From assembly GCA_964514655.1 (NCBI GenBank), contig CAZEQY010000014.1:10378-74377 (forward strand): a stretch of 64,000 nucleotides of DNA, written 5' to 3'. This document shows, in pieces, positions 4,968-44,699 of this stretch. Source of the stretch: an uncultured bacterium (GTDB lineage Bacteria > Chlamydiota > Chlamydiia > Chlamydiales > FEN-1388). Each line of letters opens with the position of its first letter. Position 1 is the first letter of the stretch. A program made the position numbers and the translations under genes. The notes beneath the pieces were generated by a model. That model searched no databases. It was not told the origin of the DNA and worked only from the letters and a program-made list of their open reading frames with translations.

Positions 4968-7710
4968 TAGTGACATCGTTAAACTGGAATTTTTGACAAA
5001 GGTCAAAATAGAGATCCGCAGCAAGCCCCAGCCAGCTGTAGTGCGTTCTATGATTATTGGGGTTATGTCTCAAAAAGCACTCTCTTGCACCATCTACGAG
5101 TGCTTGGGCCTCTTCATATGCGCGTGGTTTTTTAGAGCGGTCAAATGATCCTTCCTTTGCTAAAAGAACAAGGAACTCTTTATATTTTGTAAGTACCTGA
5201 TTCCAGAACTTTAGCAAGCCTTGATCTGAGCGGTGAGCAAGCTGTGCGCCATATATCCCGCCTATGGTATCTCCTTGGAGGGTAAAGAGCTTGTGTATCA
5301 GTAGTTCCATGTTGGTAGTGCCAAATGCAGCTTGCCACTGAGTATGCGTCTTGCTGGCAGGGTCTAGATACTCTTTCACAAGACCTGTGAGTATAAATTC
5401 ACCATGTTTAGTTTGTACGGGAGCGTCGCTCATAAATTGGTCTACAACCCATTTTCTTAGGAGGTCAAGGCCTTCTCTATCATTAGGTAGTTGATCACGC
5501 TCAAGAGCATCAAGTCGCTGCACAAGCTGTAGCGTGCTTTCTTGATCTTTAGCAAAGATGCTTGAAACAAGGAGGCGATAAAAGACTTTTGCGCGCACCT
5601 TGCGCATTTTTACTTCTAGAGCATCAGGTAGGGCTTTTTCAACTACCATTCCTTGTAGCTCAAGTTCAAGCCTTACTTTGCTTGTGATGGTGCTGAGTTC
5701 TTTTTCGCTTTCAAGCTTTTCTATTGAGATAGTGTCATACTCCTTATAAAAGCTCGGAAGGAGGTTGTCGTCGTTTGCAAAGAGAGGGTCTAGTTCATGC
5801 TTTAGCCACAAAAATCGCTCAAGAAGCATCTGAGCTTGGGAGACCTCTGCCAGGCGGAATTTAGCTTCACAGTAGGAGAAGACGCGTTCTAGAAAGCAAC
5901 ATCCCGGATTTCTTCTCAAGATAACAAGAAGGCTTACCATCTTGCCAAAAAGTTCATGGTTTGTGTCAAAGCGTGTCGTCTGGACGTAGTGAGTATAGAG
6001 TTCATGTAGGCTTTGATTAAACCGTAAGGTAGTCAAAAAGGCATCTTGATAAAGCTCATCGTATTTTAGTTTGTAGATGATCATGTCAAGCTCTGGATTA
6101 TAGTCTTGCGACTGGAAGTTTCTGCATCTTATAAACCCTTTCATAAGGCAAGACACAATCCTATCCGGCAAACAGTTTCCTGGGTCTTCGTCGGGACTCC
6201 TAAATTCAGCTAGGGGCGTTTGTAGCAAAAGCTGCCCAGCAACTTGACGCTCTTCTAGAGTAAGTGTGAGTGTTTTGGCGCCAAACCTTGCAAGGATATC
6301 TCTGGCAACTTCATAGAGAGTGTTTTGGATGGGGCGAGCGTTTAGTGTTTTTTGTAGTAGGCAAGCTGCGTTTGTTGCCCTTGTGAGCTTTTCTAGAGTT
6401 TGAGCAGGCTCCAAGAATTCGATAAGTTGCATGCATCCTTTTGCATAAGGGCGAAAGCTCCTAGTTGAAAGGCTTTTACATTGGTGCAGATCTTCTCGCA
6501 GTTCAACTACTTTTGAAATAAGCTTAGCAACAAAGTACCTACCGGCATGCACGCGCTTAGAATAGCGCAGTTTTTCTAAGTGATCTCGCTGCTCGTATAT
6601 AGCCTCTTCAAGACCGTCGAGCAGTACCTCAAGTTCTTTTACGTCCCGATTACCTTTTTGCTGTAAGCCGCAAAGGGCTTCTGTCCTAGCTTGTATTTCT
6701 TTTTGGAGCTGAACCAAGGCTTTAGATATGCTTCGTAAGCTGTCGACCTCTGTTCGTATCTCTTTGTAGATGTAATCTGCTAGGAGCTGATTATTACGAA
6801 AGTTATCCTTGGCTTCTAGTTTTTCACCTTGCCACTCAGCGATATACCTTGCTACGCTCTCCTCGACAGCTTTACGCTCTTTTCTCTTTGGAAGATAGGG
6901 GGCTAAAGACTTTTCTAGATTTTCTATTTCCTGTTTAAGAGTGCCAACTTGGCGTGCAGTGTCTTCGGGATTTGCCGGAGTAGAAGGGGTGTTTGACCAT
7001 ACCCATGATATCAATCCACCTCTATTTTGGGAAACTGAAAGCCTTGCAAGTTGCGCTGCAGCATCATCAGCAGGAGTGATGAAAGAGTTTGCAGTATAGG
7101 CGATGAACTGTAAAAGCTCTTCATAAAGTAGGGCTGTTTGGTGAGCGATCACTGTTTGGCTATGAAGCGTTCCTGTTTCTTCTTCAATTACTTTTTTAGT
7201 TTCTTGAAAAGTGCGCCTTAAGCCCATTATCTTTTCGCTAACGCTCATCTTTTCATTGGCTTCAAGTTCTTGGCAAAACCTCTTTTTCGTTTTATAGCAC
7301 TCTAACGCTCTATGATGGTGTCCGCTTCCTAGAATATAGCCAAGGTTTTGTCGCTGTTTATCTAGAATTGTGGTTCTAATCTCAAGCTGTATAAGGGCCT
7401 TAAAGGCTATTTGAGACCTCTTGGGATCATCTAAAAAGGCAATTTCTTGGATCCGCATTTGTGCGGCTTTCCAGAGTTGTGAAACTTGGATAAATGAATC
7501 ATCAAGAGCTTTCTTTTTTGCAAGGTGCTCTTTTTCGATAGAGCCTATTTGGCTTTGGCGCTGAAAAAGAAACTGGGCGGCTTCCTTCAGCTCACGCGCA
7601 TATACCTCAGTTGCTTTAACTGCAGTTTCAAAACACTCACTTGCTTTTTGATCGGCAAGTACAATGTCTTTATCGCAGGTAAAAACAACCTTAGCATTGA
7701 CTGGATCCAT
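4960..7710 (-). CDS. Large uncharacterised paralog-family protein, module 1 gene C (916 aa)
   Basis: Long ORF whose start lies 4 nt after the adk stop on the same strand. Motif 1 is DRIVSCLMKGFIRCRNFQSQDYNPELDMIIYKLKYDELYQDAF. Motif 2 is KVFYRLLVSSIFAKDQE. C-type signature is TQWQAAFGTTNMELLIHKLF. Confidence 0.85.
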   Translation of the reverse strand: MDPVNAKVVFTCDKDIVLADQKASECFETAVKATEVYARELKEAAQFLFQRQSQIGSIEKEHLAKKKALDDSFIQVSQLWKAAQMRIQEIAFLDDPKRSQIAFKALIQLEIRTTILDKQRQNLGYILGSGHHHRALECYKTKKRFCQELEANEKMSVSEKIMGLRRTFQETKKVIEEETGTLHSQTVIAHQTALLYEELLQFIAYTANSFITPADDAAAQLARLSVSQNRGGLISWVWSNTPSTPANPEDTARQVGTLKQEIENLEKSLAPYLPKRKERKAVEESVARYIAEWQGEKLEAKDNFRNNQLLADYIYKEIRTEVDSLRSISKALVQLQKEIQARTEALCGLQQKGNRDVKELEVLLDGLEEAIYEQRDHLEKLRYSKRVHAGRYFVAKLISKVVELREDLHQCKSLSTRSFRPYAKGCMQLIEFLEPAQTLEKLTRATNAACLLQKTLNARPIQNTLYEVARDILARFGAKTLTLTLEERQVAGQLLLQTPLAEFRSPDEDPGNCLPDRIVSCLMKGFIRCRNFQSQDYNPELDMIIYKLKYDELYQDAFLTTLRFNQSLHELYTHYVQTTRFDTNHELFGKMVSLLVILRRNPGCCFLERVFSYCEAKFRLAEVSQAQMLLERFLWLKHELDPLFANDDNLLPSFYKEYDTISIEKLESEKELSTITSKVRLELELQGMVVEKALPDALEVKMRKVRAKVFYRLLVSSIFAKDQESTLQLVQRLDALERDQLPNDREGLDLLRKWVVDQFMSDAPVQTKHGEFILTGLVKEYLDPASKTHTQWQAAFGTTNMELLIHKLFTLQGDTIGGIYGAQLAHRSDQGLLKFWNQVLTKYKEFLVLLAKEGSFDRSKKPRAYEEAQALVDGARECFLRHNPNNHRTHYSWLGLAADLYFDLCQKFQFNDVTIK

Positions 7711-7714
7711 TGCA

Positions 7715-8386
7715 TCACGAACGTATAGCGGTTAATAGGGCATTAAAGACCTGTTCTTGGTCTTGTTCGCCATCGATATTGATGACGCTACTTGTGCCTT
7801 TATAAAAGTCTTCCACAGGCTTTGTCTGGCTGTAGTAGGCTTTAAGGCGCTCTTGTACAACTTCGCTCGTATCGTCAGTACGCTGGATGAGCAAGGTGTT
7901 GCATTTGTCACAAAGATCCTCTTTTTTAGGAGGCTTTGAATCTATGTGATAGATACTATTACATTGAGGGCAGCTTCTTCTGCCTGTGATGCGCTTTAGT
8001 ACTTCTGCATCAGATACTACGAGGTTGCACACAAAAAGCTTGTGCGGGTGTTTGCTTAGATAGGTCTCTAGGGCTTGAGCCTGCGCCACAGTGCGGGGTA
8101 CGCCATCTAGTAAAAAGCCATTTTGGCAGTCTGGCTTTTCAAGGCGGTCAAAGAGCATATCTAGAGTTACGCTATCGGGAACAAGTTTTCCCGCATCCAT
8201 AAATTCTTTTACCTTAAGACCAAGCGGTGTTGCATTTTTTATGTTATAGCGAAAGATATCGCCCGTTGAAATGTGAGGAAGGTTGAGCGACTGCGAAAGG
8301 CGTACTGCCTGCGTGCCCTTGCCTGATCCCGGAGGTCCCAGCAAAATGATAACCTGTTTAAAATCGCTAGATGCAGCTTGTGACAT
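7715..8386 (-). CDS. adk: Adenylate kinase with a zinc-binding lid
   Basis: P-loop IILLGPPGSGKGTQA, ISTGDIFR, and a CPQC...CDKC lid. I prefer the start at ATG 8386 (MSQAASSDFKQVIILLG), the canonical distance from the P-loop. The ORF stays open upstream to 8431 and 8488. Confidence 0.9.
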   Translation of the reverse strand: MSQAASSDFKQVIILLGPPGSGKGTQAVRLSQSLNLPHISTGDIFRYNIKNATPLGLKVKEFMDAGKLVPDSVTLDMLFDRLEKPDCQNGFLLDGVPRTVAQAQALETYLSKHPHKLFVCNLVVSDAEVLKRITGRRSCPQCNSIYHIDSKPPKKEDLCDKCNTLLIQRTDDTSEVVQERLKAYYSQTKPVEDFYKGTSSVINIDGEQDQEQVFNALLTAIRS

Positions 8387-8510: not shown

Positions 8511-11045
8511 ATGAGTAGTCGGGTTGCATCGTCGGCACGAGAGGATGATTCGTCAAGGCTTGTAAATCCTGCAAGGATAGCTCCTGAGCATGCAGGTAAG
8601 TTTTGTCAGCGATGGGACGTTGTCGTGCGAGGTGTCACAAAACTTGCTAAAGAGATTGTCCAGGTGGGTAATACCCTGCAGTCGCAGGTTGCTACAATAG
8701 ACAAAATACAGCATGCAATTAAGTGGCAAACAGCAACGCGAGATGATCTAAAGCGCTACGCAAGCCAGCTTTCTGATTATGATGGCGATCTTATACGATC
8801 TAAGGAACTTCTTTCAGGTAATAGTAGTGGGCTACATAAGTCTATTTCCGTTTTGCCCAATAGGGATGAGTTTCTTCATCTATTAGCGCTTTTAGAGAAT
8901 ATGGAAGTAGAGCTTTTCTTTGCACAAAAGAGTGTGCGCGAGCTTTTATCTCTTTGCTCTTCTAAGACCTATGTAGAGCTTTATAGCCAGGCAAAAGAGA
9001 TACGCACATTTGACGCTGCAGTTACAGCTACAAGTTCTCAAAAAGCGATCATTGCCTTTAACAGCAAAGTTACAGAAGTTGTTGGCGTTTTGTCTCGTCT
9101 TAAAATGCCCGAAGATAGTGATAAAGTGAGGCGAGCTTGTTTGGAGCTTTCTTTAGATACGCTTGAAGTCTGCAAGGCGCGGATTTGCCTTGTAGAGGGA
9201 GCTGAAAATAAAGATCTATTTCGGGAAGTGAAAGCTCTTGCTGAGAGGCATATCGAATCATCAAATCAAGAACTTACAAAGCTTGCTAAAGCAAAGCTTA
9301 AGCCTCGAGGAGATCCTGTAGAGGTATCATTAGAGCAGATTCCCTCCTCGGCCGATAAGGATCATGACTTTTGGAAAAAGGCGCCGGGATTTACGCACAC
9401 GAGATACCAGAAAAAGTGGGACTACCAGTCTACAGGCGGTCTTGGGGAAAAATTAATGAAAGATTTAGGCTTACGGTTGCCATCGTTCATTTTACAGCTT
9501 GAAAAGCGTCTTGTAGCGTTAAGTCAGGGTAGCGGTATTCCTGAAAATGAGGTAGACCGCCTTATAGCAACGCTAGAGCGCATGCAAACAGTTTTTGATG
9601 AGCATAAGGGCGAGTTGTACATGACGGGCTATGATAAGGTCTCTTTGACCCTTCATAACTACTTTAGTGCCATTAGATTTGAGTTAAAAGAAGCCTACCG
9701 GCGGCTGAAATATCTATATAAGTGTACAGAACCTGCCCGCTTTACTGTTTTTAAGGCTATGGGAGAGATGCGAAAGTGTTTTGGCAATCTTGAACAAACA
9801 CCCGCTACACATGCGTTGTTTCCTGCAGCAAAGGCAATGCAAGAAGCCCTTGTTGTTGCGCCCTCAAAAGAGGCAAAAAAACCACTTGATGTCTATATCA
9901 GAACAACAATAGAGCTATTAAATGAAGTGCACGCAAGACAAGATGCTGTGCTTCTAACACTTACGGAAGATGAGGCTCTTGTGCCGGATAAGCTCTTTAC
10001 GGCAGCATCACTTGAAGGTCTTTATAGGCAGGGTGAAGAAAGAAGCGGCATTCCGATAGCGCTTATGTCCTATCTTGCAAAAGAGATGATGCACGTTCTT
10101 TATCTGCCGCAACTTCCAAAAGATTTTATTCGCACGCTTATGCTAGAGCTTGTTCTTTATTTTCTTCGGAATAAACCTGAGCTAGAAAACACACTCGAAC
10201 AGCACCCAAGATTTAAAGAGATATATAATGAATATACCGCCGCGATACAAGCAACACGAGGCCTTCTTGCAAAAGCTCTAGAGCCTGCAGTGAATGTCGT
10301 AATTAGCTCACTTCGAGTACAGGGAGTAGCTGACTATGCAAGAGCATCAGAGCTTTACTTTGAATTTGTTACTGATAGCTCTAAGTATATGCCCGAAGAG
10401 CTTTTAGTCGATGTAAAGCTAGCTCTTTTTGCAAAGTGTAAATTTTCTTACTTTGATAGCGTGCGAGATGACAGCATAGATACATGGAAACTTGAGGAGT
10501 TTACTTCCTTTTATAAAAAGCTGACGACTGTATGCAATAGTCTTCGCTATAAGCTCACAGGAATTAGCGATCACATGCGTGAATGCATAGTTTTTGAATC
10601 AGTGATGCTTAGGGTGCTTTCTGTAGCGCTTTATTCCAAAACTGAAGCCGGAAGAAATATGGCAAAATCACTTATTCAGGCAGTGTGTAACGAAGAGCGC
10701 TATCAGCCCTATATGAAGATGCTTTCTGATCAAATCTGCCTGCTTTTTACTCGTAATGCAGTGAGCAATGTGATAGGGGCAAAAGTGTATACCCTTTCTT
10801 TGTTTGAGAAAACACTTCTCTTAAAAGGCCCTGTAAGGGCGTTTTTAGAGAAAGATGAAACTGACCATACAGATACTCAGGTTGATCTTATGCTTGCTAA
10901 GCTTATATACAGTGAGCAAAAGCTGCCACGTGATCAGCGTCTATTTTCGGCTGCCTGTCCTAAGCGGGTAGAGGGTTATGTAGAGCGGATGAAAGATCTA
11001 GAGCAGGGAGATCCTGTGCGACAAATTGGCGAGGGGGAGTTATGA
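8511..11045 (+). CDS. Large uncharacterised paralog-family protein, module 2 gene A (844 aa from ATG 8511)
   Basis: The ORF track opens at 8283, but that extension overlaps adk and the promoter motif. ATG 8511 follows AGGGG and gives the Ser-rich N-terminus MSSRVASSAREDDSS, like A1. Motif 1 is IALMSYLAKEMMHVLYLPQLPKDFIRTLMLELVLYFLRNKPEL. Motif 2 is CIVFESVMLRVLSVALYSKTE. Confidence 0.85.
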   Translation: MSSRVASSAREDDSSRLVNPARIAPEHAGKFCQRWDVVVRGVTKLAKEIVQVGNTLQSQVATIDKIQHAIKWQTATRDDLKRYASQLSDYDGDLIRSKELLSGNSSGLHKSISVLPNRDEFLHLLALLENMEVELFFAQKSVRELLSLCSSKTYVELYSQAKEIRTFDAAVTATSSQKAIIAFNSKVTEVVGVLSRLKMPEDSDKVRRACLELSLDTLEVCKARICLVEGAENKDLFREVKALAERHIESSNQELTKLAKAKLKPRGDPVEVSLEQIPSSADKDHDFWKKAPGFTHTRYQKKWDYQSTGGLGEKLMKDLGLRLPSFILQLEKRLVALSQGSGIPENEVDRLIATLERMQTVFDEHKGELYMTGYDKVSLTLHNYFSAIRFELKEAYRRLKYLYKCTEPARFTVFKAMGEMRKCFGNLEQTPATHALFPAAKAMQEALVVAPSKEAKKPLDVYIRTTIELLNEVHARQDAVLLTLTEDEALVPDKLFTAASLEGLYRQGEERSGIPIALMSYLAKEMMHVLYLPQLPKDFIRTLMLELVLYFLRNKPELENTLEQHPRFKEIYNEYTAAIQATRGLLAKALEPAVNVVISSLRVQGVADYARASELYFEFVTDSSKYMPEELLVDVKLALFAKCKFSYFDSVRDDSIDTWKLEEFTSFYKKLTTVCNSLRYKLTGISDHMRECIVFESVMLRVLSVALYSKTEAGRNMAKSLIQAVCNEERYQPYMKMLSDQICLLFTRNAVSNVIGAKVYTLSLFEKTLLLKGPVRAFLEKDETDHTDTQVDLMLAKLIYSEQKLPRDQRLFSAACPKRVEGYVERMKDLEQGDPVRQIGEGEL

Positions 11046-27641: not shown

Positions 27642-27646
27642 GGTGA

Positions 27647-27721
27647 TCGGAGCAGAGGGATTTGAACCCCCGACCTACTGCTCCCAAAGCAGCCGCGCTA
27701 GCCAAACTGCGCTATGCTCCG
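27647..27721 (-). tRNA. tRNA-Pro (anticodon UGG), CCA not encoded
   Basis: Manual cloverleaf: CGGAGCA-TA-GCGC-AGTTTGGCTA-GCGC-G-GCTGC-TTTGGGA-GCAGT-AGGTC-GGGGG-TTCAAAT-CCCTC-TGCTCCG-A. The anticodon loop reads TTTGGGA. Closely resembles bacterial proM-type tRNA. Confidence 0.85.
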
Positions 27722-27782
27722 AACGTGGCAAGATCATATCTGGATTGTTGCTTTTTTTCAAGCTTTCTGCAACAAAGAGGCT

Positions 27783-37554: not shown

Positions 37555-38226
37555 AATTTGGCATTCGCTTGACCACCAGGGTCTTGACAATTTTGCGATG
37601 GAGTCATCGATGCAATCGATGGCTTCATCCATCTCGTTGCCATGATATAGTTCTGAAAGCAAGCTAGCTGCGTAGTGATTATCAGGATTTATATCTAAAA
37701 CTCGTTCTAGATAGTTGCAGGCTCTATCCTCATCGCCTAGCTCCCAGTAGTACATTTCTCCAAGCGATAGCAATAGCTCTTCGTTATCTGGCTCGAGTTT
37801 ATAAAGTTTATCAAAGAAGTGTTGTGCCCTTGCAAAGTCTTGGTCATACAAAAACTGCTTTGCGTGCTGTAGATAAAACTGAGTGGATGATTCCAGGCGA
37901 TATTCTTTTATATTTTCACAGATGCCAACACATCTAAATATATGAACTTCTGCGCACCTAATTTCTACGTTGGAGATGGTTACATATCCCGGTCTTCTAA
38001 ACGCGTTAAGTTTGTGCGCGGTGAGGCCGTCAAAGTAGTGAGATCTACCAAAAATATCTTTGATGCTAACTATATGACTAGCAGAAAATTGCTCATGTAG
38101 CATGTCAAAGGTAATATTGGTAATTTCACAGCGTTTATCGCCAGGTAATGTGATAACAGATGTTTCTTGTAAATTATCAGCATTACAATAGACGCGAACT
38201 AAATTAAGTAAACTAGGAGGTTGCAT
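37549..38226 (-). CDS. TPR-repeat protein
   Basis: The C-terminal half carries TPR-like repeats (AKQFLYDQDFARAQHFFDKLYKLEPDNEELLLSLGEMYY...ACNYLERVLDINPDNHYA). Confidence 0.7.
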   Translation of the reverse strand: MQPPSLLNLVRVYCNADNLQETSVITLPGDKRCEITNITFDMLHEQFSASHIVSIKDIFGRSHYFDGLTAHKLNAFRRPGYVTISNVEIRCAEVHIFRCVGICENIKEYRLESSTQFYLQHAKQFLYDQDFARAQHFFDKLYKLEPDNEELLLSLGEMYYWELGDEDRACNYLERVLDINPDNHYAASLLSELYHGNEMDEAIDCIDDSIAKLSRPWWSSECQIL

Positions 38227-38322
38227 GCGGAGGTAGTGTACATGACGGGCAGATTTTTTTCTTTGAAAAAATCTGCTATGAGTTTAGTGTTTGTTAAAAC
38301 CTTTAACATAAGGAAGGGTTCA

Positions 38323-41103
38323 ATGAACATTTTATCAGTACTAGGTAGCTTTATAGCTATGCTAGCGATGATTTTTGGCGCTGCCAATCTAGAGGCAGAT
38401 GCCAGATTTCATCCAAAGGAAAAGAATACAAATCATCCACGACACAAAAACCATTGTTCTAAAGATGCTACTCAGCTGCAGCCAGCATATCCCTGGGAGA
38501 CGGTTGTAGACAACAAGCAGACATTTCGTTTTATTATTATGAACTACTTTACAGACCTTTTTGATCAGTCACAGGTTGAAGACGTTGCTCATGCTGCTGA
38601 AAAGTATATTAATAAATATTTCTTTCCAAGCTGGCGTGTACAGGCTAGTGTAGAGTTCTTTGTGCCACCTAGCATGGCAGATCTTACAGCACAGTTTGTG
38701 ATTCCGGGAACGTTTGTGACCTCTATACCAGAGCCGGGCACATTTGTACCTGTGTTTTTAGTAGATCAGTTTTCAGAAAATATTGATGATAACTTTGCTA
38801 CTGCAGTTCACGGTTCAGTCTCAGGCATTGTGATGAATGGCTATAGCCACCTTGTATACCTAGAAGATGATGATACGCTTACAGGTCCCTATCCAAATCT
38901 GCCCTTTGGTACGCCTTGGATTATAATTCCTGCGGGTTCTGTTGCAAGCGGCAATGGCATCAACGCGGCAGTATATAACAACCAGTTGTCAGGACAGGGC
39001 CCAACAGACTTTTATCAAGAACTTGCGCTTACACTTGCTCATGAAATGATCGAAGTCATGGTTAATCCAACAGGGCTTTACTATACGATCGATGGTAACC
39101 CACTTGGATTTGGCCTGCCAGAAGGCTCTCCAACAAGAAACCAGTTTTATCTGCATGAAGCAGTAGATCCGGTATCTCAAGGAAATGACAATATTTTTCT
39201 CTTTTGCAACTGGCCTATGCCAAACTTTGTGCTTCCGGCCTATTTTTTTCCATTTGCGGATGTAGTATCGCATGGAACAGCACGTTATGACCTATTAGGC
39301 CATATACATAAACCCTTTCAGCCATACAAGGGTACACAGTTTGTAATTTATCAAGACCAAGTTGGCGGCGATTTGACAGAGCTATCTGTTGGTGAGTATG
39401 AATCTACAGTTGCTAATCCATATACTGTTACCTTTACATCCTTTGGTTCTATTTATGACTATGAGGGATGGGTTCTTACGGCAGAAGATGAGGCTCGTAT
39501 GCCTCTTACAGACGTTGTGACGGCATATGGTAAGCCCAATGCTTTGGATGTCAAAAAGAGCGTAAAGGCACTTTCTCGTAAGGCTGGTGTGCAAAAACTT
39601 GCTGCACGAAATGCCCCAAAACAAAAGGTACAGCCTAGACAGCGCGAAAGCATGAATATTCAGTATATGACCGAAAGGGACTTTGCCTGTCATGAGCTTA
39701 CAAAGCCCTACATACTGCCTTTTCAGTATATTGATGATGATGGCTTTCTTACTCAGCGCTATGTGATTGTCAATTACCTGCCTGTGTTCCTTATACCTGA
39801 ACAGGTAGATCAGGCAATTCCTGTTATGGAACAGTTTATACAAGAAAACTTTTTGCCATACTGGAATAGAAAAGTAGACATCATTGCAAACTTTACTGTT
39901 ACTACACCGGATTCACCGCAGCCTGTATATGACGGAACGTTTGTGCCGATGTTTGTAATTCCTGATGAATTTTTTGATTTAAATTCATTTGGAGCAATTG
40001 CTATTACAGCAGGAGCATTTAACACAAATAATAACCTGAACCCCTATTCAGGACCTCGCATCACCGATTACTGGAAGCCATTTAATGGCTTTACAGTGCC
40101 AAATCTGCCCCTTGGAAACCCCTACCTCATCTTCCCGCGCCATAACATTGCAGGGCAAGTTGATGTAACAGCACGCGATCCTCAAACACAAGCAATTGTT
40201 GCAGGACCATTCATTGCTGTGCCGCAGGGAAGTGCAGATTCTGCCGATCTACCGGTTGCAGCAGAAGGCGCGATTGCTGATCCTATTGATGCTTGCGATC
40301 CGCAGACTCCAGGAAGCATGACAGGCAAAATAGGCCTTAACATCCGTATAGGATGCAATAGCCTCGTCTATCCAAATAACATGGCAGATGCCGGTGCTAT
40401 AGCTACACTTACCGGATGGGTTGGAGGACCCGAAGGTTTTGGCGCATCAGGAGCTTTGGTGTATGGTGCCACCATGGCCCAAGCTGATATGGAAACACTC
40501 ATGGCAGCTGTCGAGAATAATCCAAATGTAGTGATTACGATCGATAACTTCCGAGGCGGTCTTACTGATATTCAGACCTTTACGGCCGTTGAAACTCATG
40601 AGTTGATGGAGCTACTTGTTGATCCAACGTATGGAGACTTTATTGTCTATAGTAACCCACAACAAGATCGCGCTGTACTTTTTGTGCAGTATGAAACAGC
40701 AGATAGTATGGAACGAGTCAATCAAATGGGAACAGATGGTGTTCATTCATACAAGATGAACCCATTTCCTATTCCGGCCTACTTTGTGCCAAACCTTCGT
40801 AATAACAACTACGACAGTCTTGGCTTGATGTATAGACCTATGATTCCACTTTCTCGCGACCAGATCCTTTGGCAACAAGAAGGTGGCCCGACAAGCATAG
40901 CTTCTACATATGGAATATTAGAGGCTACAGAGTCGCTGCTTGATTTCCAAAATAGTGGAAGTATCTTTAATCTGCATACATTCACTCCACCATTTGATAC
41001 GCCATCATACGATACTCCGGATCCTGAGATCCCAATGGACACTTCACCGGTTGCACCAAACTATGAAGAACTCCAAACTCTGGATAGCGTGATATTGCTG
41101 TAA
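38323..41103 (+). CDS. Secreted, internally duplicated protein with paired HExxE motifs and a PA-domain insertion (926 aa)
   Basis: ATG 38323 follows AGGAAGG and gives the signal peptide MNILSVLGSFIAMLAMIFGAANLEADA. The two homologous halves begin TFRFIIMNYF... and QRYVIVNYLP... The HExxE motifs are AHEMIEVMVNPTG and THELMELLVDPTYG. The PA-like segment is DACDPQTPGSMTGKIGLNIRIGCNSLVYPNNMADAGAIA. Confidence 0.8.
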   Translation: MNILSVLGSFIAMLAMIFGAANLEADARFHPKEKNTNHPRHKNHCSKDATQLQPAYPWETVVDNKQTFRFIIMNYFTDLFDQSQVEDVAHAAEKYINKYFFPSWRVQASVEFFVPPSMADLTAQFVIPGTFVTSIPEPGTFVPVFLVDQFSENIDDNFATAVHGSVSGIVMNGYSHLVYLEDDDTLTGPYPNLPFGTPWIIIPAGSVASGNGINAAVYNNQLSGQGPTDFYQELALTLAHEMIEVMVNPTGLYYTIDGNPLGFGLPEGSPTRNQFYLHEAVDPVSQGNDNIFLFCNWPMPNFVLPAYFFPFADVVSHGTARYDLLGHIHKPFQPYKGTQFVIYQDQVGGDLTELSVGEYESTVANPYTVTFTSFGSIYDYEGWVLTAEDEARMPLTDVVTAYGKPNALDVKKSVKALSRKAGVQKLAARNAPKQKVQPRQRESMNIQYMTERDFACHELTKPYILPFQYIDDDGFLTQRYVIVNYLPVFLIPEQVDQAIPVMEQFIQENFLPYWNRKVDIIANFTVTTPDSPQPVYDGTFVPMFVIPDEFFDLNSFGAIAITAGAFNTNNNLNPYSGPRITDYWKPFNGFTVPNLPLGNPYLIFPRHNIAGQVDVTARDPQTQAIVAGPFIAVPQGSADSADLPVAAEGAIADPIDACDPQTPGSMTGKIGLNIRIGCNSLVYPNNMADAGAIATLTGWVGGPEGFGASGALVYGATMAQADMETLMAAVENNPNVVITIDNFRGGLTDIQTFTAVETHELMELLVDPTYGDFIVYSNPQQDRAVLFVQYETADSMERVNQMGTDGVHSYKMNPFPIPAYFVPNLRNNNYDSLGLMYRPMIPLSRDQILWQQEGGPTSIASTYGILEATESLLDFQNSGSIFNLHTFTPPFDTPSYDTPDPEIPMDTSPVAPNYEELQTLDSVILL

Positions 41104-41115
41104 GGCATCTATAAA

Positions 41116-41147
41116 CCCAGCCTTTCATTAGAAAGGCTGGGTTTTTT
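41116..41147 (+). terminator. Rho-independent terminator, probably bidirectional (38323..41103 and rtcB)
   Basis: An 11-bp perfect stem CCCAGCCTTTC/GAAAGGCTGGG with loop ATTA, followed by T6. On the minus strand the same hairpin lies immediately after the rtcB stop. Confidence 0.75.
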
Positions 41148-42567
41148 ATCCTTTGATTACGAGGTGGGGTTTGAGGCGGGCGACTTTTTTGGCGAGCGAA
41201 GCTTCTTCCACAGCGTCAACCACTACATCAACATCTTTATAAGCGTCAGGCATTTCTTCGGCGATGGTGTTGCGGCTATCTGCCATTACACGTATTCCTT
41301 GCGTTGCCATGTATTCTATGAGGTTGCGGCCTTGCCATGATTTTTTAGACTGCATGCGGCTTCGCCGTCTTCCTGCCCCGTGGCATGAGCTACAGAAGGT
41401 GAGGGGATTGCCAAGGCCTACCATAAGGTGACTTGCACGGCCCATATCGCCGGGCACAAGTACAGGCTGTCCCGTCTTTTTGTAGAGGGGAGTAAGTTCA
41501 TTTGCACCAGGTCCATAGGCGCGCGTTGCGCCCTTTCTATGCACACAGAGGTGCATCATCTTTCCGGCTACTTCATGCTCTTCAAATTTAGCAATGTTGT
41601 GGCATACGTCGTAGATAAGGCGTACATCTTGGGCGGCAATCTTTAGTACTTCACAAAAGCCTTGGCGCACGGCATGTAAAATCCGTTGGCGGTTGTTAAA
41701 GGCAAAGTTTGCAGCTGCGCCCATTGCTTGAAAGTACTTGCGGCCGGCCTCACTTTTGATTGGAGCAGCAACAAGTTGGCGATCCGGCAAGTTGTCGCCA
41801 TAGCCTTGACGCATAAAAGAGTCTAGCGTGTCTTGGCAGATCTGGTGGCCAAAGCCGCGCGAGCCGGAATGTATCAATATATAAGTCTGCCCCTTTTCTA
41901 CAGCCCACTCTTGGGCTATTTCCGGGTAAAATATTGTCTCAACTTCGCCGATTTCTACAAAGTGGTTGCCGGATCCTATGGTGCCAAGCTGGTCTTTACC
42001 TCGCATTTTTGCAAGGTCTGAAACGGCATGCATGTCCGCCTTTTCAATAAAGCCGCGGCTTTCAGTATGTTCTAAATCAATATCAAACCCATAACCCTCT
42101 TGTATAGACCATTTAGCGCCAAGAGCTGCAAGTTTTATGTAGTCTTCATTGGATAGTGTTTTGTTTTTTGTGCCTCGCCCAACACCAGATGGCACAAGTT
42201 TAAAGATCGTTTTTAGAAGATCGTCCTTTTTTTTGTCCGTAAGGCTTTTAAATGGCACATTCACAACGGCAAGGCGCACGCCGCAGTTGATGTCATAGCC
42301 AACACCTCCAGGGCTTATGACGCCAGTTTCAGCACATGTTGCAGCAACGCCGCCAATTGGAAAGCCGTAGCCCCAGTGAATGTCCGGCATGGCAATACTA
42401 TAACCAACTATGCCCGGAAGGTGGGCTACATTTTTTACCTGGTCTAGTGACTTATCGCCTTTTATGTCTTCCATAAGGGCAGTTGAGGCAATGACAAGTC
42501 CGGGAACTTGCATCCCGCCGGTTTTTGCTATCTCAAACATTCCTGGGCCAATGTTAAACATCGACAA
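41146..42567 (-). CDS. rtcB: RNA-splicing ligase RtcB (3'-phosphate/5'-hydroxyl RNA ligase)
   Basis: Motifs GGVGYDINCGVR, GSGNHFVEIG, HSGSRGFGHQ and CSSCHGAGR. Confidence 0.9.
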   Translation of the reverse strand: MSMFNIGPGMFEIAKTGGMQVPGLVIASTALMEDIKGDKSLDQVKNVAHLPGIVGYSIAMPDIHWGYGFPIGGVAATCAETGVISPGGVGYDINCGVRLAVVNVPFKSLTDKKKDDLLKTIFKLVPSGVGRGTKNKTLSNEDYIKLAALGAKWSIQEGYGFDIDLEHTESRGFIEKADMHAVSDLAKMRGKDQLGTIGSGNHFVEIGEVETIFYPEIAQEWAVEKGQTYILIHSGSRGFGHQICQDTLDSFMRQGYGDNLPDRQLVAAPIKSEAGRKYFQAMGAAANFAFNNRQRILHAVRQGFCEVLKIAAQDVRLIYDVCHNIAKFEEHEVAGKMMHLCVHRKGATRAYGPGANELTPLYKKTGQPVLVPGDMGRASHLMVGLGNPLTFCSSCHGAGRRRSRMQSKKSWQGRNLIEYMATQGIRVMADSRNTIAEEMPDAYKDVDVVVDAVEEASLAKKVARLKPHLVIKG

Positions 42568-43318
42568 TCATCTCCCACTCTAGCACGTTATCTTCACGCT
42601 CCAAAATATCGCCATGATAGCTTACAGCCTTTATGGGCGCGCCGTGTGCGCTATCGGCAAGGGCAATCATTTTATTTAAGCTGCGTATGACGTCATTGAG
42701 TGTAGAGTGCGTGTCCCTCTCAATAAACTGTACAAATGGAGCATACGTACAGCTTAATGCAATGGCAGCGTTACGGTAAAGATCTGTTACAGTGTGTCCA
42801 CGCACTATGTAGGCAATGTCGGCAGTATGTTCTTTTTCTTCAAATGGGGCTAAAAGTTCTTTTGTATAGCGCGGAAGATACGTGAGGTTTCCCATACTTT
42901 CATAAAGGTGAATGCGAAAACCATACATAGGCTGCGCTGTGAAAGCGCTTTGCCATTGCTGCGTATCAAACGGCTTTCGCGCTACTGTTACGTGGGGCAA
43001 AAAGTCGCGTGTTTCATCGGGCACAAAGTGGCGGGTAAGGACTTGTTGTAAGTTATATAGAGGCTCTTTTTGTGTAAGAATATCAACGTGCCAACAAAGA
43101 GTGTTGTGTAATCTCAGACACTTGTCAAATATACCTGTAGGGCCTATTGTGAGCTCTGATATGTCTAGTTCTTTAAGTTCATCTACTGTCTTTTTAAGGT
43201 CTTTTTCACCTAAAAAGGCAAGCGTCATGTGACGCTCGTCCTCATGGATAAGTCTGCCGTGGGGAAGCTCTTCTGGCCAATTAGCCCGAACTTCAAGTGC
43301 AATAAAGAGCCTAGCCAT
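42554..43318 (-). CDS. Fusion protein: N-terminal 2H phosphoesterase (LigT/ThpR-like) and C-terminal archease
   Basis: Two HxTx motifs (HMTLAFLG, HVTVAR) lie in the first ~150 aa. They are followed by FEEKEHTADIAYIVRGHTVTDLYRNAA ... IKAVSYHGDILEREDNVLEWEMIVDV, the archease N- and C-terminal signatures. Overlaps rtcB by 14 nt. Confidence 0.75.
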   Translation of the reverse strand: MARLFIALEVRANWPEELPHGRLIHEDERHMTLAFLGEKDLKKTVDELKELDISELTIGPTGIFDKCLRLHNTLCWHVDILTQKEPLYNLQQVLTRHFVPDETRDFLPHVTVARKPFDTQQWQSAFTAQPMYGFRIHLYESMGNLTYLPRYTKELLAPFEEKEHTADIAYIVRGHTVTDLYRNAAIALSCTYAPFVQFIERDTHSTLNDVIRSLNKMIALADSAHGAPIKAVSYHGDILEREDNVLEWEMIVDV

Positions 43319-43745
43319 GTAGCTGGTGAAGGATCTCTTGAGTTGAAAGATGGACGAGGTCTTTATTTATTTCTTTTTTGATGAGGCTTAGCGTCTTTTT
43401 GTCTAGGGCATTGCGGAGCTCTCCCAAAAAGCCTGGGCTTGCAATCACCATGAGCTCAGAAAATTGGTTGTTGCCTCTTGCTTCGTCTAAATAGTGAGAA
43501 AGTGCTTTTGCAAAGAGGGCGCACTCGTGTTCTTTTTGCGAAGTTTTTGGCTCCATAGCATGGCGACGATTGCCTGTACTTGTAAAATCGCGTCCAGGAT
43601 TTGTTGAAACCAAGTCTTGCTCATGTAGGCGGCTTTCTGCATGTACAAAATCTTTAAGTTCTACAAGTGTGTGCATGTCTTTAAGATGAAAAATTCGTGC
43701 GCTACAGGAATTTGCTACTAGTACCCATCTGTCGTGCTGTTTCAT
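43311..43745 (-). CDS. Host-attachment-protein family (Pfam Host_attach-like; proposed release-factor-like fold)
   Basis: The N-terminus MKQHDRWVLVANSCSARIFHL matches the WVLVAD..ARIF start typical of this family. Overlaps the next gene by 8 nt. Confidence 0.6.
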   Translation of the reverse strand: MKQHDRWVLVANSCSARIFHLKDMHTLVELKDFVHAESRLHEQDLVSTNPGRDFTSTGNRRHAMEPKTSQKEHECALFAKALSHYLDEARGNNQFSELMVIASPGFLGELRNALDKKTLSLIKKEINKDLVHLSTQEILHQLHG

Positions 43746-43850
43746 AGTTTACCTCGTGTTGAATATAGCTATACCTGTCATCTAAATTAGAGTCGACAGA
43801 AATATCGTAATGGTCGATAATCCTTTCTCTTAACAGTGTTAGGTAACTGT

Positions 43851-44699
43851 ATGACGTGTGTTTGCACAGGCATCTACCAAGACGAACGTGATAGACTTTC
43901 GTCTAAAGACATTGACCTCATCTTGGATTCTGGCAGAGCCTGGGATCTTTCTAAGACGCTAGATGAGCACGGAGTTGCTATTTTTCCTCACAGCTATCTT
44001 TCTGTATGTGCACCCTATATTGCAGCGTGCGTGCATGGAGCGCTTGACTCGGGTAGTGACCATGTGCTTGTACTTGGCGTACTGCATTCCTTTAGCGATG
44101 TGCTATTTGCTGCAAGGCGCTTAGAGCGCGCGCATCAGGATCTTTCAAACTTTCCCTTGAGAGGTGTGCATGGCCCAAGAAAGCAGCGCGGAGATCACTG
44201 GAAGGCTGAATATTCTCTTTTAAGTTTTATATTTCTTTGGAACGAAGAAGTAAAAAGGCGCGGCATAAAGCCCCCAAAGCTTACTATTCGCTTTCCATAT
44301 CTTGTAAACAGGGAGCCTCATACCTTGCCGGGCATTCATGAGCTTGAGCGCATTGCAAAAGATGCCTGCCTAATTGCTACAAGTGATATTTGCCACCATG
44401 GCGTAGCCTACGGGGCAAAACCTGAAGATGTCCTTGTTGGAGAGGCTGCCTATGAATATGCCGGTAAAAGTATTAGTGATAACCTCAAGCTGCTTATGAC
44501 GGGCGATTTAGAGCGCTACTACGAACACTGTATCAAAATTTCTAGCGATTCATATGACGTTTGCCCCATTATCTACCACTTGAGAGGCGCCCTTAGGCCA
44601 AAAATTCTTGAATACGCCATTAGCGATACATCGCTTTTTTATGCCGGCACCCCAACTCCAAGCTGGGTCGCTGCCGCTCTGATAGAACTAAAAAAATAA
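43851..44699 (+). CDS. Memo-like / AmmeMemoRadiSam system protein B-like (tentative)
   Basis: FPHSYLSVCAPYIAACVHGAL, VLVLGVLHS and ATSDICHHG loosely match the PHAGY..SG, ILGPxH and SSDLSHY motifs. The start is uncertain (ATG 43851 or GTG 43836). Confidence 0.4.
   Translation: MTCVCTGIYQDERDRLSSKDIDLILDSGRAWDLSKTLDEHGVAIFPHSYLSVCAPYIAACVHGALDSGSDHVLVLGVLHSFSDVLFAARRLERAHQDLSNFPLRGVHGPRKQRGDHWKAEYSLLSFIFLWNEEVKRRGIKPPKLTIRFPYLVNREPHTLPGIHELERIAKDACLIATSDICHHGVAYGAKPEDVLVGEAAYEYAGKSISDNLKLLMTGDLERYYEHCIKISSDSYDVCPIIYHLRGALRPKILEYAISDTSLFYAGTPTPSWVAAALIELKK

Follow-up and report, generated by a model that had tools for sequence, protein, structure and literature searches.

The ligase RtcB and its activator archease form a universal system for the ligation of RNA 3'-phosphate ends, which takes part in tRNA splicing, in the splicing of XBP1 and, in bacteria, in the repair of rRNA and tRNA, and the accessory factors of RtcB are few and under active study. 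As for the ThpR/LigT enzymes of the 2H phosphoesterase superfamily, their physiological role in bacteria is, to our knowledge, not yet known. Here we analyze a locus where the two come together in an uncultured bacterium of the order Chlamydiales (assembly GCA_964514655.1, contig CAZEQY010000014.1). Within the stretch of 64,000 nucleotides examined, which is called the window below, a gene for a ThpR/LigT-type domain fused to archease precedes the gene for RtcB, and is itself preceded by a gene for a small release-factor-like protein. The GC content is about 44% throughout the window and the composition is unbroken at the locus. On the minus strand three open reading frames (ORFs) were listed, at 43311-43745 (144 amino acids, aa), 42554-43318 (254 aa) and 41146-42567 (473 aa), in the same direction as the initial annotation of this DNA had stated. 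The features of the locus are as follows.

43311..43745, minus strand: gene of 144 aa, Host_attach / baeRF_family12 (baeRF12 below), first of the co-directional cluster (Pfam, AlphaFold2 (AF2) model, fold search)
42554..43318, minus strand: ThpR/LigT-archease fusion gene, 254 aa (Pfam and NCBIfam, both halves)
42863..43318, minus strand: 2H phosphoesterase (ThpR-type) domain of the fusion, about residues 1-152 (HxTxxF and HxTxxR motifs)
42557..42853, minus strand: shortened archease domain of the fusion, about residues 156-254 (EHTAD, KAVSYH and C-terminal VDV kept)
41146..42561, minus strand: RtcB gene, the ORF extending to TTG 42567 (Pfam RtcB, PDB alignments)
41113..41144, no strand assigned: 14-bp GC-rich hairpin, candidate terminator (terminator scan, folding)

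The 144-aa gene and the fusion gene share 8 nt at their stop/start junction (43311-43318), which reads ATGGCTAG and agrees with what had been annotated. At the next junction an overlap of 14 nt had been claimed (42554-42567), and this holds if RtcB starts at TTG 42567 but not if it starts at the in-frame ATG at 42561, in which case the fusion and RtcB genes share a second 8-nt overlap, ATGTTTAA. Since the alignments of PDB homologues to RtcB begin near this ATG, it appears from the sequence to be the likelier start.

The proposed identity of the RtcB gene is confirmed by Pfam, where the 473-aa protein matches RtcB (PF01139) at 1.7e-156 with 522 bits (cut-off 27), from position 1 to 426 of the 426 in the profile. 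Its closest solved relatives are TTHA1785 of T. thermophilus (1e-139) and RtcB of P. horikoshii (2e-135), and by sequence it is a member of the 480-aa class found in archaea, Thermus and human. When aligned with the P. horikoshii structure 1uc2 over the segments GYDINCG, GSGNHF, HSGSRG, CHNIA and CHGAGR, it carries identical residues, as counted by hand, opposite D95, C98, N202, H203, H234, H329 and H404 of PhRtcB, which we take to be the metal-binding and guanylylation set. The model for RtcB2, TIGR03073 (release_rtcB), gives 164.4 bits, under its cut-off of 271.8, and thus the protein is not of the RtcB2 type.

For the gene upstream of RtcB, profile searches with Pfam and NCBIfam support both halves of the fusion that had been suggested. 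LigT_PEase and 2_5_RNA_ligase2 cover residues 9-141 with marginal scores (PF02834, 25.6 against a cut-off of 23.3; PF13563, 24.8 against 27), and the N-terminal half is also matched by TIGR02258, RNA 2',3'-cyclic phosphodiesterase, with 41.9 bits against a cut-off of 65.7. Both HxTx motifs noticed earlier are present (H30-M-T32 and H109-V-T111), and they extend to HxTxxF, consisting of H30, T32 and F35 in RH30MT32LAF35, and to HxTxxR, consisting of H109, T111 and R114 in PH109VT111VAR114. Such extended motifs define the ThpR subfamily, and in E. coli ThpR mutation of the His-containing motifs or of R130 abolished activity (PMC4201822). Among 85 aligned fusions, which are otherwise only about 40% identical, H30, T32, F35, H109 and R114 are invariant in 85 of 85, and position 111 is T or S.

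The archease half is matched by PF01951 at residues 159-193 (1.9e-8, 35.1 bits, cut-off 25), that is, in its N-terminal part only. It is shorter than a stand-alone archease, roughly 96-100 aa against 136-140, and the T. maritima archease 1j5u aligns with it at both ends while about 27-40 central residues are missing. Four residues, H164, D167, K230 and D253, are nevertheless invariant in all 85 fusions; placed by motif, they correspond to H9, D12, K117 and D141 of PhArchease, all of which are required to activate RtcB (PMC3973293), and the equivalent D51, K156 and D178 of human archease sit at the active site of RTCB (PMC10944509). PMC3973293 and PMC4604427 document that P. horikoshii RtcB depends on archease. 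Because the residues needed for activation are all kept, the archease half is read as an activator of RtcB, a role well supported by the sequence and by the biochemistry of the family; RtcB and archease are a bona fide pair, as had been supposed.

The AF2 model of the fusion (pLDDT 95.8), with a pTM of 0.91, indicates one fixed two-domain unit. Its top matches in Foldseek are the E. coli LigT/ThpR structures 4qak and 5ldi (E 2e-7, target-normalised template-modelling score 0.62), and the archease TM1083 is also among the matches. This rigidity can be read in another way, namely that the 2H half has no catalytic part to play and is a scaffold, which replaces the deleted archease beta-strands or tethers RNA, so that the protein would be a functional archease only; the gap of about 30-40 central residues in the archease half would fit such a role as well as the single rigid body of the model does, and some 2H-fold proteins, e.g. 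AKAP18, have been suggested to be non-catalytic nucleotide binders (PMC4201822). However, the five residues invariant in 85 of 85 fusions are the very catalytic and substrate-stacking residues of ThpR, and their invariance at about 40% overall identity is unexpected of a mere scaffold, which we consider quite improbable. From its motifs, the 2H half is apparently a catalytically competent ThpR-type phosphoesterase.

The fusion recurs widely. A word-indexed search brought up full-length homologues, at least 202 in number, which measure 240-300 aa and are 40-63% identical; the named ones are Chlamydiae or Parachlamydiaceae proteins from metagenome-assembled genomes (MAGs). A scan with one genome per species found it in 159 genomes, of which the best 80, from which the affiliation of the carriers is taken, are chlamydial, and an exhaustive hidden Markov model search of 1.8 billion cluster representatives returned 233 clusters (50% identity) at E<=1e-30, nearly all about 260 aa long and matched end to end. 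The initial annotation had allowed that a frameshift in sequencing or assembly might have joined a LigT gene with an archease gene; because the same uninterrupted architecture of 240-280 aa recurs in 159 species genomes and in about 233 clusters, this is ruled out and the fusion is genuine, and the AF2 model as a confident single unit also speaks against an artefact, to which we leave hardly any chance. Two unusually long proteins, P0348 (596 aa) and P0362 (775 aa), were considered as fusions of higher order and rejected, their N-terminal PRTase and TSP3 domains being unrelated and the proteins looking like merged gene calls. No description of a 2H/LigT-archease fusion was found in the literature searched, the coverage of which is partial, so an earlier mention is possible.

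Gene neighbourhoods were counted at 80 chlamydial fusion loci, of which 78 are informative after two contig-end cases. RtcB follows the fusion directly and in the same direction at 77 of the 80, that is, at 77 of the 78 informative loci, with a gap from -8 to +100 nt (median 1). The neighbourhood survey that had been proposed for LigT-archease fusions thus finds them recurrent and with RtcB next to them. The gene upstream of the fusion differs at almost every locus, and these upstream genes are mutually unrelated. Since RtcB follows at 77 of 78 loci while the upstream gene varies, the conserved unit is a two-gene operon of fusion and RtcB. This pair is spread over Parachlamydiaceae, Simkaniaceae, Waddliaceae and Rhabdochlamydiaceae MAGs in chromosomal contexts that are variable and ordinary, and its distribution suggests that it was apparently inherited vertically through the environmental Chlamydiia. 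Some MAGs titled Verrucomicrobia or Verrucomicrobiae also carry fusion-RtcB (L013, L017, L028, L035, L058, L059, L061, L063, L066, L074 and L076). In the fusion tree the fusions so labelled nest among those of Rhabdochlamydia and other chlamydial sequences, and the labels probably reflect an effect of taxonomic labelling, not a wider distribution.

Regarding known systems, the locus is alike to the RtcB-archease "tRNA splicing operon" of P. horikoshii (Desai et al. 2014/2015) in that archease and RtcB are adjacent and co-directional, that the RtcB is of the same class with all catalytic residues, and that the H/D/K/D residues of archease are kept; it is unlike that operon in that the chlamydial archease lacks about 30-40 residues and makes up the C-terminal half of a 2H fusion. 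By sequence, the locus belongs among the RtcB-archease operons, with a cofactor of variant form. E. coli ThpR/LigT (Remus, Jacewicz & Shuman 2014, PMC4201822; 4qak, 5ldi) is the best structural match to the other half and has identical HxTxxF/HxTxxR motifs. However, ThpR stands alone and is not known to have a partner, whereas the chlamydial domain, at about 150 aa, is the shorter of the two and is covalently tied to an activator of RtcB.

We consider it fairly probable that the core of the locus is an end-sealing operon of ThpR-archease and RtcB, upstream of which baeRF12 has been placed, and probably co-transcribed, in the sub-lineage of the window. For the archaeal/Thermus/human class of RtcB, the Asp/Lys/Asp at the tip of archease supplies a metal and phosphate site for guanylylation. 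In the chlamydial RtcB the active-site histidine would receive the guanylyl group in a step driven by the archease half, as is established for the family, and the ligase would then by established chemistry join 3'-phosphate or 2',3'-cyclic-phosphate ends to 5'-OH ends, the substrates presumably being broken tRNA, rRNA or mRNA. As a competent domain held rigidly against the archease half, the ThpR-type half may act on the same 2',3'-cyclic-phosphate ends, in a direction that we can suggest with low certainty only.

Several points weigh against this interpretation and have to be considered together. E. coli ThpR converts RNA>p into RNA-2'-P, on which RtcB is inert (PMC4201822), and the eukaryotic 2H enzyme CNP antagonises RtcB and for the same reason lowers ligation (PMC10630183); to fuse such a domain to the activator therefore has no obvious logic of a sequential pathway, and any role proposed for the 2H half is speculative. 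The co-transcription of baeRF12, fusion and RtcB in the sub-lineage of the window, although probable, is suggested by the overlaps of the genes, and a scan of the window identified no promoter upstream of baeRF12. Besides, one informative locus, L003, has no RtcB after the fusion: baeRF12 and fusion overlap there by 4 nt (6534-7732) and are followed by an unrelated 297-aa ORF on the minus strand, with no RtcB within 6.7 kb downstream, which hints that the fusion can have a function apart from RtcB.

The problem of the product can be seen clearly by comparison with the cyclic phosphodiesterase domain of Trl1/AtRNL (PMC7145591) and with CNP (PMC10630183), which likewise are 2H cyclic phosphodiesterases with a physical or functional tie to the ligation of RNA that has 2',3'>P ends. 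In Trl1/AtRNL, however, the 2'-P product passes to an ATP-dependent 3'-OH/5'-P ligase, whereas with RtcB a 2'-P blocks ligation, therefore the chlamydial fusion cannot follow the logic of Trl1 and a "heal then seal" order cannot apply. Given catalytic residues that are invariant and a canonical 2'-P product that is unsealable, we favour, as a speculation, a role of the 2H half in gating or editing ends, whereby unsuitable ends would be committed to a non-ligatable state. Alternatively, 2',5' linkages may be cleaved by the 2H half so as to leave 2',3'>P and 5'-OH ends, which RtcB would reseal as 3',5'; reverse transesterification on 2',5' linkages was first described for E. coli LigT. A further function is suggested by analogy with the human complex, in which archease and RNA exclude each other on RTCB (PMC10944509), so a fused domain that binds RNA ends could hold the substrate while RtcB is being charged.

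The end-sealing reading leaves room for different substrates. The operon could serve housekeeping RNA processing in Chlamydiia, such as sealing after programmed cleavage of tRNA, rRNA or another stable RNA, instead of the repair of damage, and the broad, apparently vertical inheritance of the pair in ordinary chromosomal contexts would suit this, as would the window genes, among which no RtcR, RtcA, toxin or mobile-element neighbours of the operon are found. On the other side, the window has no intron-containing tRNA or split RNA and only one ordinary tRNA-Pro, and we know of no split-RNA substrate in Chlamydiia. Such housekeeping is possible yet rather less than likely; as a reading it bears on the substrate and leaves the mechanism as it is, and it can hold together with end sealing by the two genes.

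We turn to the release-factor-like protein. The 144-aa protein matches Host_attach (PF10116; 3.7e-39, 134.9 bits, gathering cut-off 26.7) and baeRF_family12 (PF18856; 2.6e-32, 112.7 bits, cut-off 27.7) over profile positions 1-138, which is a full-length match, so the Host_attach assignment made earlier was right. The kinship of that family with archaeo-eukaryotic release factor 1 (aeRF1), which had been suggested, is also confirmed by the baeRF_family12 match and by a fold search; the baeRF-1 families were defined by Burroughs & Aravind 2019 (PMC6514570). The model comparison that had been proposed was run: the AF2 model, of moderate quality (pLDDT 78, with loop 38-69 below 60), matches the central domain of eRF1/Pelota. 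The best PDB match in Foldseek is Balon (8v9l_z, E 1.3e-5), and aRF1 4af1, eRF1 1dt9 and Pelota 3wxm are also matched, all at E from 1e-5 to 1e-3. Judged from profiles and model, the protein is a stand-alone central domain of the aeRF1 superfamily; the N-terminal codon-recognition domain of eRF1/aRF1 is not in it, nor is the C-terminal domain, which in eRF1/Pelota binds the partner GTPase. In the family alignment neither a GGQ nor a conserved Gln was found in its loop. The segment equivalent to the GGQ loop, residues 35-74 (window 43524-43643), is in spite of predicted disorder the best-conserved segment of the baeRF12 family, with H35, R39, G51, the RHAMEP motif and E74 conserved in 30 sequences down to 31% identity, which is the opposite of what Burroughs & Aravind describe for most baeRF-1 families (PMC6514570).

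The bacterial hibernation factor Balon (Helena-Bueno et al. 2024, PMC10901736) is not only the top fold match but also lacks both GGQ and NIKS, as the chlamydial protein does. However, Balon has three domains and about 360 aa, and its N-terminal domain binds the decoding centre through an HP motif, while the chlamydial protein, which is of one of the stand-alone baeRF-1 families, is a central domain only and, being a single domain, is not Balon. RaiA is a frequent gene neighbour of Balon, and no RaiA/HPF gene was found among the neighbours of the 144-aa gene by Pfam on the window ORFs. The C-terminal domain of Balon contacts EF-Tu. By analogy with the central (M) domain of Balon, baeRF12 would probably bind the ribosome, and would act there with no catalytic motif of the GGQ type.

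Within 7 kb of fusion-RtcB, baeRF12 is absent at 77 of the 80 chlamydial loci, and it lies upstream of the fusion only at L001-L003 (3/80), the closest relatives of the window, so the idea that the three genes form one conserved module is not supported. Beyond the 80 loci, intact trios occur at L130 and L138 (baeRF12 identity 52-53%). In the window and at L001, L002, L003, L130 and L138 the genes adjoin tightly, with overlaps or gaps between start and stop from -8 to +2 nt, and the trio persists down to about 50% identity of baeRF12 and 41-47% of the fusion. All loci at which baeRF12 and fusion are linked fall into a single clade of the neighbour-joining tree of 85 fusions, and since unrelated flanking genes, namely tsaD, an alpha/beta hydrolase and a Memo-like gene, are equally syntenic within this clade, the adjacency is explicable by inherited gene order. 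In two lineages, L132/133 and L134/135, the trio is split by a gene on the opposite strand. Elsewhere baeRF12 is followed by other genes, as at L081/82 (a 464-aa protein), L085/86 (DUF308), L131, L136 and L137, and such homologues adjoining genes other than the fusion can be close, with 64-70% identity (70% at the L081 locus). By its distribution, baeRF12 is read as a sub-lineage-specific add-on, not an obligatory component.

Some of these neighbours may be noted in themselves. The gene inside the trio of L132 (5427-6710, minus strand) encodes, between baeRF12 and the fusion, a 427-aa protein of no assigned family, and that of L134 (3579-5018, minus strand) encodes, between the fusion and RtcB, a 479-aa leucine-rich repeat (LRR) protein, LRR being a eukaryote-like repeat class typical of chlamydial effectors. 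The 464-aa protein takes the position of fusion-RtcB at L081 (6426-7820, plus strand) and also at L082 and L083, its start overlapping the baeRF12 stop by 10 nt; as a possible substitute in RNA repair it was rejected, the protein of L081/L082 having no Pfam or NCBIfam family and no hint of such a function. Divergent from baeRF12 in the window lies the Memo-like gene (43836-44699, plus strand, 287 aa; match below threshold, E 0.01), which adjoins baeRF12 in L001, L085/86, L130, L132, L135 and L138 at 49-84% identity and accompanies baeRF12 even in loci that have no fusion-RtcB.

Outside Chlamydiia, 43 metagenomic baeRF12 loci were collected with the narrower alignment A4, the broad A3 being too divergent, which biases the sample to sequences with HPESRLH and RHAMEP motifs. 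RtcB lies within 5 kb of baeRF12 in one of the 43 and the fusion in none, and when the six nearest ORFs were clustered no family recurred in more than 5 loci. The single case, L102, has baeRF12 at 5001-5381 (43% identity) and RtcB at 9924-10367; the two lie on one strand, with RtcB about 4.5 kb further downstream and truncated where the locus ends. A general linkage of Host_attach and RtcB, the survey of which had been proposed, is rejected on these 43 loci.

These counts bear on the idea that the trio is a dedicated ribosome rescue-and-repair module like PrfH-RtcB2, in which a damaged and stalled ribosome would be recognised and its cut rRNA or tRNA healed. The precedent itself (E. coli; PMC9304027, PMC9223846) shares with the trio a translational coupling between RtcB and a release-factor-like gene. 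All three chlamydial genes are so coupled in the window, L001, L002, L130 and L138, the arrangement is kept to the identities given above, and the 144-aa protein combines the central-domain fold of eRF1/Pelota/Balon with a conserved loop at the GGQ position. In addition, RtcB has been noted among the gene neighbours of Balon in some bacteria (Helena-Bueno et al. 2024, PMC10901736), and as this adjacency is already published, an aeRF1-family gene beside RtcB is not a new idea. However, PrfH belongs to the bacterial release factor superfamily (PMC6514570) and hydrolyses peptidyl-tRNA, whereas the chlamydial protein is a one-domain member of the unrelated aeRF1 superfamily with no GGQ; Pfam and NCBIfam matched it to aeRF1-superfamily models only and to no bacterial release factor or PrfH model. 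The known system has no archease or 2H domain, and the chlamydial linkage is limited to one clade. The analogy drawn in the initial annotation hence does not hold as regards membership: a PrfH-type release factor domain and a GGQ are both absent, TIGR03073 gives the RtcB a score below its cut-off, and with two defining features tested and found lacking, the locus is not a PrfH-RtcB2 module. A rescue module of another composition is opposed by the 77 of 80 fusion loci with no baeRF12 within 7 kb, by the baeRF12 homologues of 64-70% identity that precede unrelated genes, by the opposite-strand genes inside the trios of L132 and L134, by the 1 in 43 metagenomic loci with RtcB nearby and no recurrent neighbour, by the equal synteny of unrelated flanking genes, and by a protein that has neither codon-recognition nor C-terminal domain beside an RtcB that is not of the RtcB2 subtype. 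We regard such a module as unlikely, and in the baeRF12 clade the expression of baeRF12 may merely be tied to that of the ligase; a functional link of baeRF12 with RNA repair is possible.

The boldest form of our interpretation, which we put forward as a doubtful proposal, is that a single polypeptide charges RtcB with GMP and edits RNA 3' ends, to which one clade adds a GGQ-less aeRF1-type factor that directs it to the ribosome. If it were true, editing would mean either the opening of aberrant 2',5' linkages for 3',5' resealing or the irreversible capping of ends whose rejoining is to be avoided, and a minimal aeRF1-type factor might direct repair to ribosome-bound RNA in one chlamydial clade. 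On present evidence baeRF12 does not define a new rescue system but is one more documented aeRF1-family gene beside RtcB.

The main interest of the locus is the conserved ThpR-archease fusion, the trio as a new rescue module being weakly supported. The activator is joined to a 2H enzyme of which the textbook product blocks RtcB, and this makes the conserved fusion a biochemical paradox. Because such an enzyme is fused to the activator and conserved across environmental Chlamydiia with its catalytic residues invariant, the fusion is a natural experiment in the allocation of 2',3'-cyclic-phosphate ends to sealing or to capping, and it could give the ThpR/LigT enzymes a defined pathway context.

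Downstream of the operon, the hairpin at 41113-41144 has a stem of 14 bp, lies directly after the RtcB stop and is common to a convergent 960-aa ORF (terminator scan). It folds with a free energy (dG) of -24.4 kcal/mol (z = -5.8) on the plus strand and -27.5 (z = -7.4) on the minus strand. A bidirectional terminator had been annotated here, of which the strong hairpin between converging genes stands; the claim is only half-supported because a proper T-tract is found on the plus strand only, the RtcB-sense strand reading UUUAUAG. From its sequence the hairpin is likely a terminator. Another terminator-like hairpin with a T-run, inside the 5' end of the fusion gene (43219-43238, minus strand), was tried as an attenuator and is taken as chance, since it is unconserved in 11 related loci and is built by the codons of the HxTxxF motif. 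The convergent 960-aa ORF (38221-41103, plus strand) has no Pfam family, and an internal duplication considered for it was rejected after self-BLAST gave none. The sole RNA gene that Rfam and ARAGORN find in the 64-kb window is a tRNA-Pro(TGG) at 27645-27722 on the minus strand.

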